From Calditrichaceae bacterium (GTDB taxonomy: Bacteria > Calditrichota > Calditrichia > Calditrichales > JBFXGD01), in the NCBI GenBank assembly GCA_050178385.1, contig JBFXGD010000005.1, positions 1-51,293 of the forward strand: DNA of 51,293 bases, read 5' to 3'. Shown piece by piece: positions 42,666 to 51,293 of this stretch (positions are counted from its first letter, which is position 1; every line of letters begins with the position of its first letter). Under the pieces are notes generated by a model. The model saw only the letters and a program-made list of their open reading frames with translations, made no database searches and was not told where the DNA came from. The position numbers and the translations under genes were made by a program.

Positions 42666-42680
42666 TGGTATGATAATTGT
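42666..42680 (+). promoter_or_regulatory. sigma54-like -24/-12 element (imperfect)
   Basis: TGGTAT-GATAA-TTGT: GG-N10-GT versus consensus TGGCAC-N5-TTGC; ends 48 bp before ATG 42729; very similar to the site at 47643. Confidence 0.4.
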
Positions 42681-42728
42681 AAATTAACTTGCTTAATGAT
42701 GACAAGAAATGAATCAATGGAGAAAAAC

Positions 42729-43874
42729 ATGAAACATATTTATTATATCCTGATCTTATCATTTTTATCCGTTTTCTCGCAACCTTCTGTACAGGGAGTC
42801 AGCGGCTCCACTTCACATGCCAGTATTTTGACGATACAGGGAGCCGGCTTTGGGGTTAAATCCACCGCCTCACCCGTAAAATATGATGATTTTGAACTTG
42901 GGGCAGCCGGGAAATCTCTTGCGGACGGCGATTGGCTGATCAGCACAAATAAAGGATTTGATCCGGTATACAGCGATAAAATAACCCGTCCGAATTCAGC
43001 CTTTTCTGCTCAAAGCCACACTCAGGACCCGCCGACAGGGGATAATTATCAGTACAGGTGCGCGTTTGGTATCGGGAATCCTGACGGTATAAGGGAGATT
43101 TATATCAATTTTTGGTGGTACTACGATGGCCCGCCCAATTCACCCGGTTGTGTAAAATTTGTGAGACTATATCCAAATCCTACATCACCTTACAGCGGTC
43201 CCCCAAATACCTACATTGATTTTGATTGTGATCCTTACAGCGGACTTCTTAATTCCGATGATATTACATCTGTGGATGGGCACAACAGCAAATGGATAGG
43301 TGATGCCTGGGATTGGACAAGAGCGCGGGGGAATTGGCAACATGTGCAGTTTTATTTTAAGGCATCCGATATCGGCCAGGAGAACGGGACAGCTAAGATG
43401 TGGGTAGGAAACGGAGACGCGCCTATTAGTCAGGTGTTGAATGAAGAAAATAATCTGCTTACGCGTACACCCGCAAATCCCGCTCTATGGCATAGTTTCT
43501 GGATTGGCAATTATCTATCCATCTTGGGCAGTGAAGGCTGTAACGGGCACAATTGTGAAGAACCCAATGAAGTTGTATCCATTTTTTATGACAATGTTTA
43601 TATAGATTATACACAGGCGCGGGTTGAGCTCGGTGACAATCCGGCTTATTTGAATTGTAAGCACACAGAAATTCAAACACCGACCGACTGGACAGATAAT
43701 TCTGTTGCCGTGAGACTAAATACAGGCTCTTTTTCTGCAGGTGAAACGGTTTATTTGTATGTCATTGACTCCGGAGGTTTGGTCAATTTGGATGGATTTC
43801 CTATCGTTCTGAATACATCATCCACAACAAAACCGGAGCCTCCGAAGGGTTTGGAGATATTGAAAGAAAATTAA
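42729..43874 (+). CDS. Secreted protein: split IPT/TIG-like Ig domain with inserted jelly-roll (polysaccharide lyase/LamG-like) domain and PxxPxGLxI tail
   Basis: Start ATG 42729 (RBS GGAG), signal peptide MKHIYYILILSFLSVFS-Q; ILTIQGAGFG...WTDNSVAVRL (IPT-like); EIYINFWWY, GNWQHVQFYFK, GTAKMWV, FYDNVYID (jelly-roll-like); ends PEPPKGLEILKEN. Confidence 0.6.
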   Translation: MKHIYYILILSFLSVFSQPSVQGVSGSTSHASILTIQGAGFGVKSTASPVKYDDFELGAAGKSLADGDWLISTNKGFDPVYSDKITRPNSAFSAQSHTQDPPTGDNYQYRCAFGIGNPDGIREIYINFWWYYDGPPNSPGCVKFVRLYPNPTSPYSGPPNTYIDFDCDPYSGLLNSDDITSVDGHNSKWIGDAWDWTRARGNWQHVQFYFKASDIGQENGTAKMWVGNGDAPISQVLNEENNLLTRTPANPALWHSFWIGNYLSILGSEGCNGHNCEEPNEVVSIFYDNVYIDYTQARVELGDNPAYLNCKHTEIQTPTDWTDNSVAVRLNTGSFSAGETVYLYVIDSGGLVNLDGFPIVLNTSSTTKPEPPKGLEILKEN

Positions 43875-43880
43875 CATTAA

Positions 43881-43929
43881 TTTCGGCATGTTATCATTTT
43901 GTTCCCAATGCGATTATAACATGCCGAAA
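43881..43929 (+). terminator. Long inverted repeat after the secreted-protein gene (terminator or mRNA-stabilising hairpin)
   Basis: Perfect 14-bp stem TTTCGGCATGTTAT / ATAACATGCCGAAA with a 21-nt loop. Confidence 0.55.
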
Positions 43930-44003
43930 ATTTTAATTCCCGCCTAAAATAAATTTGCGAATAAAATACCCATATAAATACTAAAATACGGATTCCTCGA
44001 CCT

Positions 44004-45128
44004 ATGACTCTATCAAAAAAGATTATGTTCATTTTCGGAACACGGCCCGAAGCAATAAAAATGGCACCGGTCATTAAAAAATTTAGCAACAAACCGGATA
44101 TAAAACCCGTCGTGGTTGTTACTGCTCAGCATCGTGAGATGCTGGATCAGGTATTAAATATATTTAATATAAAGCCTGATTATGATCTGGGCATTATGAG
44201 GGATAATCAATCCTTAGAGGACATCACCATTCTCGCGCTACGGGAGCTTTCTGATATTATCAAATTAGAAAAACCAGCAATTATCCTCGTGCAGGGCGAT
44301 ACTACTACCACGTTTGTCGGCGCGCTTTCCGCCTTATATAACAAAATACCGATCGGACATATCGAGGCAGGATTGCGCACGTTTGACAAGTTCCAACCCT
44401 ATCCTGAAGAAATAAACCGGAAATTGACCACAGTACTTGCCGATGTTCACTTCCCGCCTACAAAGCAAGCGGCGGAGAATCTGAGAAATGAAGGAGTACG
44501 GGATGATCTGATATCCATTACAGGAAATACGGTAATTGACACTTTACTGGAAGTTGTTGACAGAAAATTTAATTTTACCGATCCTCTGAAGACGATACTC
44601 AGTCAAAATAACAGCCGGGTGATCCTGGTAACCGCTCATAGAAGGGAAAGTTTCGGGGAGCCGCTGGTGAATATACTTTCAGCGCTGAAAGAAATTGCGG
44701 AAAGAGCGCCTGATGTCCAAATTCTTTTCCCAGTACATCCTAATCCGAATATCAAAAATGCAGTGTATAAACAGATTGGCGGTAATCCCAAAATCCATCT
44801 TATCGATCCCCTTGATTATGAATCATTCGTTCATTTAATGAATAAATCTTACCTCATAATTACCGATTCCGGAGGCGTACAGGAAGAGGCTCCATCACTT
44901 GGAAAGCCGGTTCTTGTTTTAAGAAATAAAACAGAACGGCCGGAAGCGGTTGAGGCAGGCACTGTCAAATTAGTAGGATCAGATTATGAAGTAATTGTTT
45001 CTGAAAGTTTGAAGTTATTGAGCGATAAAGACGCTTACAACAGCATGGCAAGAGCAATCAATCCATATGGTGACGGTAAGGCGTCTGAAAGAATTTTTAA
45101 GATCATCACAGAGCGATTTTTGCGATAA
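44004..45128 (+). CDS. wecB: UDP-N-acetylglucosamine 2-epimerase (non-hydrolysing)
   Basis: FGTRPEAIKMAP, QHREMLDQ, QGDTTT, HIEAGLR, PEEINR, TDSGGVQEEAP, NPYGDG. Confidence 0.96.
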   Translation: MTLSKKIMFIFGTRPEAIKMAPVIKKFSNKPDIKPVVVVTAQHREMLDQVLNIFNIKPDYDLGIMRDNQSLEDITILALRELSDIIKLEKPAIILVQGDTTTTFVGALSALYNKIPIGHIEAGLRTFDKFQPYPEEINRKLTTVLADVHFPPTKQAAENLRNEGVRDDLISITGNTVIDTLLEVVDRKFNFTDPLKTILSQNNSRVILVTAHRRESFGEPLVNILSALKEIAERAPDVQILFPVHPNPNIKNAVYKQIGGNPKIHLIDPLDYESFVHLMNKSYLIITDSGGVQEEAPSLGKPVLVLRNKTERPEAVEAGTVKLVGSDYEVIVSESLKLLSDKDAYNSMARAINPYGDGKASERIFKIITERFLR

Positions 45129-45144
45129 TGGATCAGGAGCAGTA

Positions 45145-46368
45145 GTGAAAAATTCATTGAGAATTTGTTATGTTTATCAGGATCAGTACCCCTGGGAAGT
45201 AAGAGTCAAGAAAATCACGGAAGCATTGGCCGAGAGAGGCGCGGAAGTTCATATCGTATCACGAAATAAAGACTGTTTGCCCGAATTGGAAGCATCCGTG
45301 CAGCGGATCACCATCCACCGACTGTCAGGCTCAGGAAACTCCATCATAAGAATTTTAAAAAATTTTCCGGCATTTTTTTCACCATTCTGGATAAAAAAAA
45401 TTGTCGATGTGGTCAGACAGAATAAAATCGATTTGATCATAATTCGTGATCTTCCCTTATCTCCGGCTGCTTATATTGCCGGAAAAATCACAGGTAAGCC
45501 TGTTATAATGGACATGGCCGAAAATTATCCCGCCCTGATTCGTTCAACATGGGATTATCGTGGACCAAGTTTTGTGGATTTATTCATAAGGAACCCGTAT
45601 TTCCTCCGTTTGATGGAGAAATTTGTTGTACCAAGATTAGACGGTGTGCTCGTTGTATCAAAACAGAGTGCTGAGAGAGTAGAAAAACTCAGTCCCGGAG
45701 ACGACCAGATATGGGTTGTTGGCAATACACCGATTTTAAATGAGGAAAACGGGCAGACAATTTATTCAGAACTTGCTGATAAAATAAGTTCGAAATCATC
45801 TTTCATTCTCCTGTATACGGGTATGATCGAAGCCCACCGGGGTATTGATGTGCCGGTCCGGGCACTGGCAAAATTATCAATCTCTATCCCCGGGATAAAG
45901 CTTGTTATTGTCGGTGAGGGTACTTATGAGTCGAAATTAAAGAATATTATTAAAGAAATGAATCTGGAAGACAGTGTTTTCTTCACGGGATGGGTTCCAA
46001 ATAAATATCTCAATTCAATTATTAAAATCTCTGATATCGGCCTGATTCCGCATTATGTCTCGGAGCATATAGATACGACACTTCCCAATAAGATTTATGA
46101 TTATATGGCTGAAGCTAAACCCGTTCTGGTGACGCAATCACGTTCTCTTTCTGCCATCATTCAGGCTGAAAAATGCGGTCTGATTTATAACGATCACTCA
46201 CCGGATGACCTGGTAGAAAAAGTGTTAAAGCTATACGATGAGGGGACCAGAAAAAGACTCGGGGAGAACGGGAAACAAGCCGTGTTAAAAAGATTGAACT
46301 GGGAAACCGATAAAAAGCATCTTTGGGAAGCCATTAATTCCGTATTAGACTCAAAAAAGTTGAGTTAA
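45145..46368 (+). CDS. Glycosyltransferase family 4
   Basis: Start probably GTG 45145 (RBS AGGAG), which avoids overlap with wecB; YTG...HRG, FTGWVP, LPNKIYDYMA. Confidence 0.87.
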   Translation: MKNSLRICYVYQDQYPWEVRVKKITEALAERGAEVHIVSRNKDCLPELEASVQRITIHRLSGSGNSIIRILKNFPAFFSPFWIKKIVDVVRQNKIDLIIIRDLPLSPAAYIAGKITGKPVIMDMAENYPALIRSTWDYRGPSFVDLFIRNPYFLRLMEKFVVPRLDGVLVVSKQSAERVEKLSPGDDQIWVVGNTPILNEENGQTIYSELADKISSKSSFILLYTGMIEAHRGIDVPVRALAKLSISIPGIKLVIVGEGTYESKLKNIIKEMNLEDSVFFTGWVPNKYLNSIIKISDIGLIPHYVSEHIDTTLPNKIYDYMAEAKPVLVTQSRSLSAIIQAEKCGLIYNDHSPDDLVEKVLKLYDEGTRKRLGENGKQAVLKRLNWETDKKHLWEAINSVLDSKKLS

Positions 46369-47547
46369 TTGAAAGATGAATATAATCTCCGGAAACTTTT
46401 ACCAGATCCAATTTTAACCAAAAGAATAAGTTTGAAGAAAAAAATTAAATTGGCCTATATCATAGATGAAATTAATATTGGTGGGACGGAAAATCAGTTG
46501 TTGACGCTTGTTAAAGGCATCAACAGGGGAGAATTTGAGCCACATATTATTTGTCTAAGATCAACTCCTGCGATTGCCAACATGGGATTTAATGTTAAAA
46601 TAAAAATTCTGGGAATGAGAAAAATTTTATCTTTAAACGGCATTCGAAAACTTATAGAATGCGCTTCATATATCAAAAAAAATAAGATAGATATTGTGCA
46701 GGTATTTTTCTTTGATTCAACCCTTGTTGGAATTCTGGCATCAAAACTGGCAGGTGTGAAGCATATACTTGCATCGCGAAGAGATTTGGGGTACTGGATA
46801 ACACCGATGTTAAAAAGAACGTTGAATTTTCTTGATAATTTTACGGGTCATTATATCGTAAATTCAATGGCGATTAGTAACTATCTTCAAAAAGAGGAAA
46901 ATATTGATCCCGCGAAGATAGTAATTATTTATAATGGACTGGCGATTAGCCAGAATTCCGAAGTGATTTCGAACACAAAAAAGACTTTTTTTAATAAAAA
47001 CACATTTTTAGTGGGCCTTGTAGCCAATTTGAACCGCCCGGTAAAAAGACCTGACGTATTTGTAGATGCAGCCATTTCGGTTTGCAGAAAAGTGGAAAAT
47101 ATTGAATTTGTGGTTATCGGCGACGGATATCTAAGAAAAGAGCTGGAAGAGGAAGTGCTAATTTCCGGATTTAAGGACAAGATTCACTTTACAGGACAAA
47201 CGGAAAACGTAGCCGGGTATCTTAAAAAAATGGATCTGGGCGCGCTAAGCTCTGATTCAGAGGGCTTTTCAAATACACTTATTGAGTATATGGCGGCCGG
47301 ACTGCCCATAGTTGCCACTGATATTGCAGCAAACCGAGAACTCCTGGATGATGGAGAGAATGGCATGTTATTTAAAACAGGGGATTCGGAAGCCCTCAAA
47401 GATAAAATCCTGGAATTGTACGCAAACCCCGGAATGAGGCAGGTATTTTCATCAAATAATCTTAAAAAGGCACTGAATTATTCTGAACGTATGATGATTG
47501 ACAAACATGAGGATGTGTATAAAAAATTAATTTTGAATCAGATTTAA
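46369..47547 (+). CDS. Glycosyltransferase family 4
   Basis: GGTENQL, VANL..VKRP, SEGFSNTLIEYMAAG. True start may be slightly downstream. Confidence 0.88.
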   Translation: MKDEYNLRKLLPDPILTKRISLKKKIKLAYIIDEINIGGTENQLLTLVKGINRGEFEPHIICLRSTPAIANMGFNVKIKILGMRKILSLNGIRKLIECASYIKKNKIDIVQVFFFDSTLVGILASKLAGVKHILASRRDLGYWITPMLKRTLNFLDNFTGHYIVNSMAISNYLQKEENIDPAKIVIIYNGLAISQNSEVISNTKKTFFNKNTFLVGLVANLNRPVKRPDVFVDAAISVCRKVENIEFVVIGDGYLRKELEEEVLISGFKDKIHFTGQTENVAGYLKKMDLGALSSDSEGFSNTLIEYMAAGLPIVATDIAANRELLDDGENGMLFKTGDSEALKDKILELYANPGMRQVFSSNNLKKALNYSERMMIDKHEDVYKKLILNQI

Positions 47548-47642
47548 ATTGTATAGATTTTTTACAACCAACCGGTTAGATTGGTATCGTAATAAAAAGT
47601 TTCAGTTGCTCCACAGGGCAGTTTGACATGCTGAATAATAAT

Positions 47643-47657
47643 TGGTACAATTATTGC
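47643..47657 (+). promoter_or_regulatory. sigma54 -24/-12 promoter
   Basis: TGGTAC-AATTA-TTGC: exact GG-N10-GC spacing, one mismatch to TGGCAC-N5-TTGC; ends 39 bp before ATG 47697. Confidence 0.55.
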
Positions 47658-47696
47658 CTTTCCATTGTCAGAAATGGAATTAACGAAAGGCATGAG

Positions 47697-48569
47697 ATGA
47701 AAAAAAATATTTTTGGTTACGCGTTTATTATTAGTTTCTTTTTTATTCTTCAAAATTATTCCTTTGGGACTGTTTTGGTTTCCGCGAATTTTGATAATCA
47801 ATCTTATTCAAGTCCGTTGGAAATTGCACACATTTTTGGAGGAAGCTGGGCATACGACGCTCTAAACAATCATGGTATCAACGGATATGCAATCAGGGGT
47901 GATCACGCGGAAGGTGATCTGATAGCAATGATTGATAATCTTGAAAGATACCTGGAAGATGGAATATATTTCAGATATTGGGTAAAATATAGTTCTGAGT
48001 ACTATTTTCCCGGCGAACTTAATCAGTTTGAAAATGTGAAGATGTTAAAATTTGCAGGCGGCGACGCGGATATCGAGTTTATCTATAAAAAATCTGCAGA
48101 CGGAGGTCCGCATAGTTTACAATTGTACTGGATCAAAGAGTCCACGAGGTCCTGTTGCGGCGGAACAGGTTCGAGTGAAACAGATTTATTTCCCGGTGAG
48201 AATACGGACTTTGCTGGGAATAAATATTTAACAAAAAATATCTGGCATAAAATTGAAATTTATATAAAAGTAAGTGATGACGGCAGCGCTGACGGTAATT
48301 CGATGGTACATGTACAAGTAGATGATTCGGATGTTTATATCAACCGGGATGCCGATTTCATGTTGCCTGCCTCGGTATACACCAGCGCACAGCAATTTGT
48401 ATCTATTCATGCGCATGATTCACCGCCAGCGGGTCATGGATATTGGTATCTTGATGACATAATAGCTGTTTATAATGAAGGCGATTTGTGTGATAACGAA
48501 CCAGACGGTCAGAGTGATGTGGAATCTCCTTCAGCTCCTACTGGTGTTAATATTATGTCCATTAACTAG
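47697..48569 (+). CDS. Secreted jelly-roll (polysaccharide lyase/LamG-like) protein with PxxPxGVxI tail
   Basis: Start ATG 47697, signal peptide MKKNIFGYAFIISFFFILQNYSFG; IYFRYWVKY, NIWHKIEIYIK, VHVQVD, WYLDDII; ends PSAPTGVNIMSIN. Confidence 0.6.
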   Translation: MKKNIFGYAFIISFFFILQNYSFGTVLVSANFDNQSYSSPLEIAHIFGGSWAYDALNNHGINGYAIRGDHAEGDLIAMIDNLERYLEDGIYFRYWVKYSSEYYFPGELNQFENVKMLKFAGGDADIEFIYKKSADGGPHSLQLYWIKESTRSCCGGTGSSETDLFPGENTDFAGNKYLTKNIWHKIEIYIKVSDDGSADGNSMVHVQVDDSDVYINRDADFMLPASVYTSAQQFVSIHAHDSPPAGHGYWYLDDIIAVYNEGDLCDNEPDGQSDVESPSAPTGVNIMSIN

Positions 48570-48584
48570 AGAGTAAACGAAAAG

Positions 48585-48630
48585 TTCCGGTCAAATTCTT
48601 ACTTTTGATATTAATTGAATTTGGCCGGAA
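48585..48630 (+). terminator. Long inverted repeat closing the EPS locus
   Basis: 14-bp stem TTCCGGTCAAATTC / GAATTTGGCCGGAA (one G-U pair) with an 18-nt loop. Confidence 0.55.
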
Positions 48631-48883: not shown

Positions 48884-51293
48884 ATGAAGAACCGATTGTT
48901 ACTTATACTGATACTTACATTATTTTTGGGCAATATTGCATTTGCGCAAACTAAATACGGGAATGAGTTGCTTGTAAACACGACAACAACCCTGAATCAG
49001 CGCAATCCCGATATTGCGGTTGACAAACAAGGTAATTACGTAATTGTTTGGGAAGATCAGCTCAATGAAGAAAACTATGGGATTTATGGGCAGCGATATT
49101 CAACAAACGGGAATAAGATTGGAACAGAGTTTCAAATAAATACATACACTACCCTGGATCAAAAAAATGCCTCAGTCTCCATGGATAGTCTGGGAAATTT
49201 TGTAGTGGTATGGCAAAGTGCCGATCAGGATGGATCAGGTCCCGGAATATATGGTCAGCGTTTTAACAGCAGCGGCAGTAAGTCGGGCACTGAATTTATT
49301 GTTAATGACACTACCTTGTACCAGCAGATTAATCCGGATGTCGCGATGGATGACCTCGGAAATTTCGTGGTTGTTTGGGAAAGCAATCACGCGACAACCG
49401 GTCTCGACAGTTTCCCGTACAGAGCCTATGGCCAGCGTTTCAATTCCACGGGATCAAAAAATGGAATTCAATTTTCGGTTGATGCAAGCGCGGTTTCCTA
49501 TGACGTATTTCATCCGATCGTACCAAAGGTCGATCTGGCGAATGACGGCAGTTTTGTCGCTGTATGGACTTCATGGTCGACAAACGGACTCGCGGGTGAT
49601 ATCTATGGACAAAGATTTGATACAAACGGAAATAAAGCAGGCGGTCAATTCCCGGTAAATACTACTACAAATGCTTCTCAACGATACCCCGACATCGCGC
49701 TGGATAAAAGTAAAAATTTCTGGGTTGTCTGGCAGAGTTATCAGTTGGGCCCGCAGGATGTTTTTGGACAGCGTTTTAATTCGACCGGCACCAAAGTAGG
49801 CAGTGAATTTAAAATAAATACTTATGATAACTCAAATGATCAGGAATTCCCGAGTATAAGTTCTGGTGGAGATGATGTATTTGTCGCCACATGGCAAAGC
49901 GCGGATCAGGACGATTCAAGCAGGGCGGTAGTCGCCCAACGATACCATTCAGATGGAACAACATTCGGCCCTGAATTTCAGGCTAACACATATTGGTATG
50001 ATGATCAAATAAGTCCCGCTGTAGCAGTAGACAAGAATGGTGACTTCGCCATTGTCTGGCAAAGTAATTTACAAGATGGTTCAGGAAACGGAGTGTACGC
50101 ACAGCTATTTAAAATGGCGCCCGTATTCACGGCTATTCCTCAAATTAATATTAATGAGGATAACAATTATAAAGTTCACAAGTCATATTATTATAGTTAT
50201 GTTTCGGATGAGACCCATGCTGATGCGGAGTTGACCTGGCAATTTGGAAATGGTACTAATATTACGACACAGTTTGTGAATGACAGTCTCACTATAACAC
50301 CGTCATCCAACTGGTTTGGTATTGATTCGTTTATAGTGATCGCAAAAGATCCAACTAATTTATCTGATACCACCTATCAGGTCGTCAACGTCGCTGAAAC
50401 TAACGACGCGCCGGTAGTGGCGGACATTCCGAATCAGACCGTTGCTGAAGGCGCCAGTTTTACGACCATCAGTCTTGATGATTATGTAAGTGATGTGGAT
50501 AATTTGGATAGTGAGATGACCTGGACATACAGCGGCAATACCGATCTTTCGGTAACCATCACCAGCCGTGTGGCGACCATCGGTATTCCCGCCGACTGGA
50601 ACGGCGCCGAGACGATCACGTTTACGGCCACCGACCCGGATAATTTGTTTGACAGCGACGCGGCGACCTTTACGGTCACGGCGGTCAATGACGCGCCGGT
50701 AGTGGCGGACATTCCGAATCAGACCATTGCAGAAGGCGCCAGTTTTACGACCATCAGTCTTGATGATTATGTAAGTGATGTGGACAATTTGGATAGTGAG
50801 ATGACCTGGTCATACAGCGGCAATACCAATCTTTCGGTAACGATCACCAGCCGTGTGGCGACCATCGGTATTCCCGCCGACTGGAACGGCGCCGAGACGA
50901 TCACGTTTACGGCCACCGACCCGGGCAATTTGTTTGACAGTGACGCGGCGACCTTTACGGTCACGGCGGTCAACGACGCTCCGGTAGTGACGGACATTCC
51001 GAATCAGACCATTGCTGAAGGCGCCAGTTTCGCGACCATCAGTCTTGATGATTATGTAAGCGATGTGGATAATTTGGATAGTGAGCTGACCTGGTCCACC
51101 AGCGGTGAGACAGATCTTACGGTAACGATAGATGTCAACCGTATCGCGACGATTACCATTCCTGTAGACTGGAACGGCGCCGAGACGATCACGTTTACGG
51201 CCACCGACCCGGGCAATTTGTTTGACAGTGACGCGGCGACCTTTACGGTCACGGCGGTCAACGACGCTCCGGTAGTGACGGACATTCCGAATC
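48884..51293 (+). CDS. Large secreted surface protein/adhesin: signal peptide, seven-repeat beta-propeller, tandem ~95-aa cadherin/Ig-like domains (3' truncated)
   Basis: Manual translation: RBS AAGGAGG, MKNRLLLILILTLFLGNIAFA-Q; seven repeats like EFQINTYT..Q..PxVAMD..GNFVVVWQS..QDG..GIYGQRF; then NDAPVV.DIPNQTI.EG repeats. Open to the window end; absent from the ORF track because there is no stop. Confidence 0.88.
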   Translation, partial: MKNRLLLILILTLFLGNIAFAQTKYGNELLVNTTTTLNQRNPDIAVDKQGNYVIVWEDQLNEENYGIYGQRYSTNGNKIGTEFQINTYTTLDQKNASVSMDSLGNFVVVWQSADQDGSGPGIYGQRFNSSGSKSGTEFIVNDTTLYQQINPDVAMDDLGNFVVVWESNHATTGLDSFPYRAYGQRFNSTGSKNGIQFSVDASAVSYDVFHPIVPKVDLANDGSFVAVWTSWSTNGLAGDIYGQRFDTNGNKAGGQFPVNTTTNASQRYPDIALDKSKNFWVVWQSYQLGPQDVFGQRFNSTGTKVGSEFKINTYDNSNDQEFPSISSGGDDVFVATWQSADQDDSSRAVVAQRYHSDGTTFGPEFQANTYWYDDQISPAVAVDKNGDFAIVWQSNLQDGSGNGVYAQLFKMAPVFTAIPQININEDNNYKVHKSYYYSYVSDETHADAELTWQFGNGTNITTQFVNDSLTITPSSNWFGIDSFIVIAKDPTNLSDTTYQVVNVAETNDAPVVADIPNQTVAEGASFTTISLDDYVSDVDNLDSEMTWTYSGNTDLSVTITSRVATIGIPADWNGAETITFTATDPDNLFDSDAATFTVTAVNDAPVVADIPNQTIAEGASFTTISLDDYVSDVDNLDSEMTWSYSGNTNLSVTITSRVATIGIPADWNGAETITFTATDPGNLFDSDAATFTVTAVNDAPVVTDIPNQTIAEGASFATISLDDYVSDVDNLDSELTWSTSGETDLTVTIDVNRIATITIPVDWNGAETITFTATDPGNLFDSDAATFTVTAVNDAPVVTDIPN
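50402..51293 (+). repeat. Near-identical intragenic tandem repeats (units of 285, 285, 288 bp plus a partial fourth)
   Basis: Units start at 50402, 50687, 50972 and 51260 (AAYGACGCNCCGGTAGTG...), all in frame with ATG 48884. Confidence 0.95.

Follow-up and report, generated by a model that had tools for sequence, protein, structure and literature searches.

A fibronectin type III strand closing two secreted Calditrichota proteins is a candidate docking tag for strand-deficient partners

We analysed a stretch of 51,293 nucleotides from a Calditrichaceae bacterium (JBFXGD010000005.1; hereafter the window), which is contig C5 of genome G000 (3.9 Mb, 94% complete). Two genes of the window, A and B, encode proteins with predicted signal peptides and a similar C-terminal tail that resembles strand A, the first strand, of a fibronectin type III (FN3) domain. 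We observed that the same genome encodes two candidate acceptors, proteins with an FN3 domain that starts after this strand and with the C-terminal domain (CTD) of type IX secretion system (T9SS) cargo. With moderate confidence, we read the tail as a docking tag that would complete the six-stranded FN3 domain of such T9SS-tagged partners and would tether predicted glycan-acting proteins to the cell surface. Signal peptides of A and B were called by eye. The coordinates and tail sequences reported for both proteins in the original prediction were exact:

42729-43874, + strand: gene A, 381 residues; signal peptide, jelly roll, polar linker, predicted orphan FN3 strand A
43833-43874, + strand: tail of A, PEPPKGLEILKEN and stop; P-x-x-P-x-G-L-x-I followed by 4 further residues; proposed donor strand
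47697-48569, + strand: gene B, 290 residues; signal peptide, PL14-like jelly roll, acidic linker, predicted orphan FN3 strand A
48528-48569, + strand: tail of B, PSAPTGVNIMSIN and stop; P-x-x-P-x-G-V-x-I followed by 4 further residues; proposed donor strand

To place the tails, we used 18 complete FN3 domains from 7 other proteins. On a 95-position profile of these domains the tails fell on positions 2-15, at low scores (−0.2 to 4.5 bits). This placement and the in-register homologues described below point to strand A of an FN3 domain as the identity of both tails, as had been proposed. A matrix drawn only from strand A of these domains ranked B 1st, a protein on contig C60 5th and A 12th among 3029 C-termini; alone it is a weak detector, because several genes ranked in between are not tail proteins. 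The motif closes 3 of 3019 closed genes of G000 against 0.12 expected (P = 2.6e-4), a test that is circular for A and B, since these two supplied the motif; the third gene alone gives P = 0.11. This third tail gene encodes an unrelated signal-peptide beta-helix protein on C60, inside a second polysaccharide cluster of G000. Among close relatives, the tail codons carry 3-9 synonymous changes versus 1 non-synonymous change. The final Asn, earlier included as the last motif residue, is not kept: close relatives of B end in Lys. In one relative, the counterpart of B is 93% identical.

Neither A nor B matched Pfam or NCBIfam. The structure model of A (predicted local distance difference test, 86.8) is a jelly roll whose closest folds in Foldseek were PL14, PL20 and PL36 lyases together with X122 and Cip1 domains, at 8-14% identity (best figures: 5gmt, E = 1.4e-8; 2zzj, E = 2.1e-8). 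The non-lyase folds Cip1 and X122 score about as well as the lyases. In this model the PL14/PL20-like jelly roll appears to sit inside an IPT/TIG-like immunoglobulin (Ig) domain, the Ig part being assigned by eye. Botulinum and tetanus chains were rejected as relatives of A, as they share a generic jelly roll only (TM-score about 0.3). For B, Atlas features gave 0.97 to clusters partly annotated PL14. The jelly-roll-like cores claimed earlier for both proteins were recovered as the beta-jelly-roll of PL14, PL20 and PL36 lyases, by model and Foldseek (11-14% identity) for A, and by Atlas features and homology to A for B. One Lys is invariant in both alignments and is a candidate catalytic residue.

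A and B had been described as otherwise very divergent. Their BLASTP comparison gave E = 0.015, and profile-profile alignment gave a probability of 98% (E = 7e-14, 231 columns), which suggests that they are distant homologues and that part of their similarity reflects common ancestry. In the monomer model A lacks secondary structure over its last 20 residues, and folding of the tail back onto its own protein, named in the original prediction as a way in which it could fail, was rejected for A on this one model. The absence of PEP-CTERM and T9SS features held up as well. No Pfam or NCBIfam match to a T9SS CTD (a C-terminal beta-sandwich of about 70-80 residues) was found in A or B, the end of A being unstructured, and their tails showed no helix of the kind found in tripartite sorting signals, the chain stopping 4 residues past the strand. 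An exosortase (PF09721) had 0 matches in the 94% complete genome G000.

We then assessed how far the tail extends beyond these two proteins. The family of A comprises about 4600 cluster representatives (50% identity) at E ≤ 1e-3. The tail pattern ends 73 of 171 homologues of A and B, always 1-5 residues from the stop. Among the top 150 of family A, 44 matched strictly and 22 loosely and 84 were unmatched, shares that are biased upward because the search profile contained tails. Other termini in this family were T9SS-like CTDs, dockerin-like ends, a Cys/transmembrane anchor and Gly-rich tails. Tail genes also stand in tandem, four in one metagenome locus and five in a Moranbacteria locus. The enrichment check proposed earlier came out in favour, the motif being enriched at C-termini of secreted proteins in polysaccharide loci. 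Several A/B homologues carry a Gly/Arg-rich tail instead (L013:2491-3384, L007, L011, L014; P0003, P0011, P0012, P0023, P0024), some of them on phage-like contigs; these ends are a possible second portable terminal motif.

Across the phylum, we scanned 86 Calditrichota genomes using frame-fixed DNA patterns with 1, 2 or 3 trailing residues. The counts are lower bounds, because homologous tails have 1-5 trailing residues and A and B themselves have 4. The two-trailing-residue patterns gave 154 matches, and 28 of 100 examined were ends of long or contig-cut frames in 14 sequence clusters, which is not an unbiased rate because 40 of the 100 were picked by eye. The one-trailing-residue pattern gave 110 matches in the 86 genomes, with 0 gene ends among 50 examined, and a free-gap DNA pattern applied genome-wide did no better than its control (49 versus 62 matches). 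Tails were found in 27 of 86 genomes, or 25 without two doubtful ones. The carriers are jelly-roll, beta-helix, alginate-lyase, heparinase-II-like, GH30-like and propeller proteins, and most of those annotated have glycan-enzyme domains. A Pfam scan of 13 Calditrichota tail proteins gave matches in 8: beta-helix (2), alginate lyase, GH30 C-terminal, DUF5060/apiosidase-like, heparinase II C-terminal, DinB and BNR. The tails of the DinB and BNR proteins are the doubtful ones. Family A occurs in only 4/86 genomes and the C60 beta-helix family in 7/86, too few for co-occurrence statistics. One C60 beta-helix homologue (G074, L073:1996-2817) lacks the tail, and its coding sequence is broken up over different reading frames. 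In G025, one 36-base sequence recurs ten times on ten contigs (nine identical, one with two changes) and is probably part of a mobile or repeated element.

The search for FN3 domains without strand A, which the original prediction had proposed as a check, yielded two candidates in G000:

G000:C77:4629-3745, − strand: acceptor C77, 294 residues; signal peptide, strand-A-less FN3, Ig-like domain, type A CTD
G000:C128:5982-4837, − strand: acceptor C128, 381 residues; signal peptide, strand-A-less FN3, Ig and FN3-like domains, CHU_C-type CTD

The Pfam fn3 match on the acceptor starts at profile position 11 of 84, directly past the signal peptide. On the complete-FN3 profile, the C77 acceptor covers positions 21-94 from its residue 24 on, and the tails cover 2-15; the two halves are complementary. 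In the C77 model the first domain has six strands, one short of the seven of an FN3 domain with strand A; in alignments with stand-alone FN3 structures its residue 1 falls on their residues 12-18. Strands B-G match the FN3 fold (Z 11.5, root-mean-square deviation 1.5 over 77 residues). Another part of the same chain may act as filler of the strand-A groove in this model. The CTDs scored 43.1 bits (Por_Secre_tail, C77) and 32.8 bits (CHU_C, C128) at a cut-off of 27, and the last domain of the C77 model matches the solved T9SS CTDs 8qb1, 6za2 and 8glk. G000 also encodes SprA (SprA_N match), a PorV-like barrel, two C25 peptidases and at least 36 CTD-type cargo proteins.

The acceptor domain had matches in 79 of the 86 genomes, although weak matches include complete FN3 domains. 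All 30 top acceptor loci start at strand B right past the signal peptide, as do 6 of 7 further loci checked, the seventh (G001) being a complete FN3. In the 30 top loci (L025-L054), 29 mature acceptors begin with Gln, mostly Gln-Thr. N-terminal pyroglutamate formation occurs in Bacteroidota, and these termini would fit it. The PorV-like barrel directly upstream of the C128 acceptor (L023:5972-7198, − strand) has a C-terminal, apparently complete FN3 domain of its own. G006, G030 and G038 have the same block of barrel, acceptor, AraC-type regulator and deacetylase, and G050 shares its first two members, the barrel and the acceptor. In G082, a lipoprotein with a strand-less FN3-like domain (L126:18761-19207, − strand) lies directly behind a CTD-type acceptor, so that both anchor types are adjacent.

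The strand-donation idea thus gains specific partners, because strand-A-less candidate acceptors exist in G000; the physical binding we infer from sequence. At the level of genes, G000 appears to encode what donor-strand complementation takes, a strand-deficient acceptor and a separate strand-bearing protein. Cargo and acceptor would both reach the periplasm by Sec, where the tail would bind the open edge of the acceptor FN3 non-covalently. T9SS would export the acceptor and hold it at the surface. The CTD-less cargo would either leave bound to the acceptor or exit separately and dock outside, and the displayed enzymes would trim or bind the polysaccharide of the surrounding cluster.

A small-protein search outside the phylum returned 23 proteins and revealed other arrangements of the same halves. 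Four (P0174, P0178, P0182 and P0188) are permutants: behind a signal peptide and a strand-less FN3, the same chain closes with a strand A at its C-terminus. In five lipoproteins the strand-less FN3 is the last domain (P0176, P0177, P0179, P0186 and P0191), and P0187 joins a strand-less FN3 to a dockerin. A wider reading, which we put forward tentatively, is that many phyla have split FN3 into a natural tag and catcher: an 11-13-residue C-terminal tag borne by dozens of enzyme families, and a catcher without the strand, attached to a T9SS CTD, lipoprotein, dockerin or membrane tail. In Calditrichota, CTD-less proteins might then be carried along through the type IX translocon and displayed as a modular coat that processes glycans.

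We assessed whether tag and acceptor are linked in the genome. A and B lie in a polysaccharide cluster, and the last gene of the window is cut by the contig end:

10623-47547, + strand: Wzx/Wzy polysaccharide cluster hosting A and B; priming transferase, Wza, Wzc, Wzx, Wzy-like polymerase, glycosyltransferases, modifying enzymes
48884-51293, + strand: Ig-repeat protein, 5' part, truncated at the contig end

Besides the end of C5, the Ig-repeat unit of this last gene has one other location, the start of contig C104, and in the same-genus genome G038 matching repeat pieces likewise lie at two contig ends. One G038 contig tiles C104, C182, C231 and C128 in order. Because of the shared repeat and this tiling, the C128 acceptor probably belongs to the cluster of A and B, about 31 kb plus an unknown repeat number downstream of B; the C5-C128 join follows synteny with G038 and is not assembled. 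All this would form one co-oriented surface-polysaccharide region, which by eye also includes another flippase, further CTD proteins (several) and glycosyltransferases. We also examined 20 acceptor-centred windows (764 kb, 585 closed genes). Tail genes were present in 3 of them, 5 in all, about 4-14 kb from an acceptor. This corresponds to 5/585 genes, versus 3/3108 genome-wide in G000.

Several observations weigh against a dedicated pairing of tail and acceptor. The other 17 of the 20 acceptor windows hold no tail gene, and the three positive ones are not independent, as two come from one genus and the third holds three paralogues. All 27 tail genomes have an acceptor-domain match, which is not significant (P = 0.06) because 79/86 genomes are positive anyway, and the best match in G001 is a complete FN3. 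In family f3, 25 of 26 genomes have an acceptor match and a tail was found in only 1; there the three-trailing-residue pattern gave 139 matches with 1 true gene end among 50 examined, and the other patterns gave none. The Moranbacteria genome, with its five tandem tail genes, yielded no clear strand-less FN3, and none was seen in 17 non-Calditrichota loci of relatives of B (mostly short contigs, 8 with tail genes). Acceptors are often without a detected tail partner, an excess that suggests further donors as yet unrecognised. Outside the phylum, the nearest Atlas clusters of the permutant P0178 are mostly from tailed phages, and because of this resemblance the permutants may reflect virion assembly. 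Finally, at least 3 of 150 family-A homologues (P0029, P0116 and P0165) continue in register into a complete FN3; 45 extend more than 60 residues, and besides the 3 complete cases 6 (by eye) reach a variant FN3.

These gaps are what one would expect if the tail were a sorting signal for another receptor, transporter or protease, with the strand-less FN3 proteins pairing elsewhere or folding alone. Tails where no acceptor was found, acceptors with hardly any tail, and the constant distance of 1-5 residues to the stop (73 scored) suit this explanation, as does the alternation of the family-A tail with T9SS-like CTDs, dockerin-like ends, a Cys/transmembrane anchor and Gly-rich tails. That alternation suits a docking tag equally, however. 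No conserved reader gene was seen beside tail genes in the loci read, and the exact complementarity of the two halves would have to be a coincidence. We therefore consider another receptor unlikely.

The FN3 continuations bear on a further explanation, in which FN3 domains were repeatedly truncated past the first strand and the tail is a functionless stub. The original prediction had named homologues running on into a full FN3 as a refuting finding; a few do (at least 3, by eye up to 9 of 150) and most do not. The common ancestry of A and B and the absence of the tail from many homologues (84/150 unmatched) also agree with a vestige. A stub would hardly stop 1-5 residues past the strand in many unrelated folds, be retained by all five tandem genes of one locus and four of another, or show the synonymous bias in its codons. 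Complementary strand-less domains are, in addition, conserved phylum-wide. A vestige is, on these data, quite improbable.

A capture of the tail by a C25 (PorU-like) transpeptidase, which would then cut it or join it covalently as a minimal T9SS-type attachment signal, is very improbable. The two C25 peptidases and SprA of G000 would allow it, but no C25 gene was seen in the window, tails also occur in the Moranbacteria locus, and the CTD-type cargo proteins, at least 36, suffice to explain the C25 genes. Least likely of all, the pairing could be real but periplasmic, serving retention, an assembly step or head-to-tail chains rather than surface display: lyases of polysaccharide clusters can act in the periplasm and lipoprotein-anchored and permuted forms exist, but the G000 acceptors end in T9SS-type CTDs and no protein with both halves was found in G000.

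The docking tag favoured here can be compared to several known systems. Cohesin and dockerin of cellulosomes form a portable terminal module that attaches many glycan enzymes to surface-anchored scaffolds. The tail likewise is a portable terminal module on many different glycan enzymes, but it would be an 11-13-residue fold-completing strand, whereas the cellulosome module is itself folded and binds calcium; each scaffold here has a single acceptor domain. SpyTag and SpyCatcher are engineered split tags. Anastellin is an incomplete FN3 fragment (PMC13233970). As in both of these, an incomplete FN3 or Ig-like sandwich would bind a complementary strand; unlike the fragment and the engineered tags, the present candidate pair is encoded in a genome.

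In donor-strand complementation and exchange, as in chaperone-usher pili and the Pam pili of candidate phyla radiation bacteria (PMC13278184), one protein gives the strand missing from another's truncated Ig-like sandwich. The present case would differ in that the fold is FN3, the first strand is missing, and unrelated enzymes would offer it at their free C-terminus. In the pili the donor is a pilin extension or internal linker; for A and B no polymer is predicted. No chaperone or usher genes were found among the 40 window proteins scanned, the rest of the genome not having been searched for them. T9SS anchors type A and type B CTD proteins, with PorP-like partners (PMC9143113). The acceptors carry type A and type B CTDs as such cargo does, and the type B one follows the PorV-like barrel gene, which recalls the PorP-like partners; A and B, in contrast, have no CTD and would, at a second tier, ride on a CTD protein as passengers or bind it as ligands. 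The tripartite C-terminal sorting signals LPXTG, PEP-CTERM and MYXO-CTERM (10.1101/2023.06.07.544157) are also short tags on unrelated secreted proteins in polysaccharide loci. Unlike them, the tails have no membrane helix or basic cluster, and no exosortase was found.

No account of the tag or the acceptor was found in the literature searched, most subscription journals lying outside it. The tail is a real and widespread feature that is apparently undescribed. If the proposed docking is correct, it would amount to a general, unannotated code for the destination of secreted bacterial proteins that can be read from their last dozen residues, and to a second modular principle of enzyme display beside cohesin-dockerin. 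It would possibly also be a route for CTD-less proteins into type IX secretion, and the pairs would form a natural library of small tags and catchers for protein engineering. The pair named here, a 13-mer peptide and an 85-residue domain, is testable and both parts are easy to make.

We also assessed the promoter-like sites and hairpins around A and B, which had been described as a shared cassette design:

42666-42681, + strand: predicted sigma54-type −24/−12 site before gene A, GG-N10-GT, imperfect
43881-43929, + strand: long hairpin after gene A, 17-nt arms, z −5.06
47643-47658, + strand: predicted sigma54-type site before gene B, GG-N10-GC
48585-48630, + strand: long hairpin after gene B, 14-nt arms, z −5.01

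Genes for PEP-CTERM proteins have sigma54-type sites upstream, and G000 encodes RpoN. The claim of a similar sigma54-type element stood for B, whose site is GG-N10-GC; the site of A departs from it with GT, and that of B overlaps a sigma70-like site at 47623-47651 (11/12 match). A relaxed sigma54 motif precedes 3/3 tail genes of G000, versus 35/2576 genes genome-wide, and only 1/9 tail genes of other genera. Hairpins had been reported with 14-bp stems. They are real (z about −5), their arms measure 17 and 14 nt, and they are unlike in sequence and not scored as intrinsic terminators. Given the 1/9 outside the genus, neither site nor hairpin was accepted as a defining feature of the system, and both look like a local trait of the genus.

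The rest of the polysaccharide cluster contains an unusual modifying set (11964-36554): an acyl carrier protein, two adenylating ligases, two ATP-grasp and two asparagine-synthase-like proteins. The same region holds two CapA-like proteins, a DUF362 protein, a STAS-domain protein and a short Wza (247 residues). In another genome, a gene for a tail-bearing beta-helix protein has a contractile-tail-like cluster about 8 kb away (G057:C213, L105:74-9518, − strand), with genes recognised by eye as sheath, tube, LysM and AAA ATPase.

Among the small permuted proteins P0178, P0182 and P0188, the phage likeness of P0178 suggests donor-strand chains on virions. The sequence P0091 runs through a signal peptide, a strand-less FN3, a Cys-containing membrane-anchor-like segment, a second signal-like segment and then a family-A protein; probably either an anchor gene was read together with a cargo gene here or the two are fused. 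A Bdellovibrionales genome carries a permuted FN3 gene (L067:1213-1653, + strand) tail-to-tail with a lipoprotein gene (1643-2125, − strand) whose product ends in a strand-less FN3, and this pair could be an anchor and a chain-forming subunit. Another protein of this genome (L064:1-1785, − strand) likewise starts at strand B.

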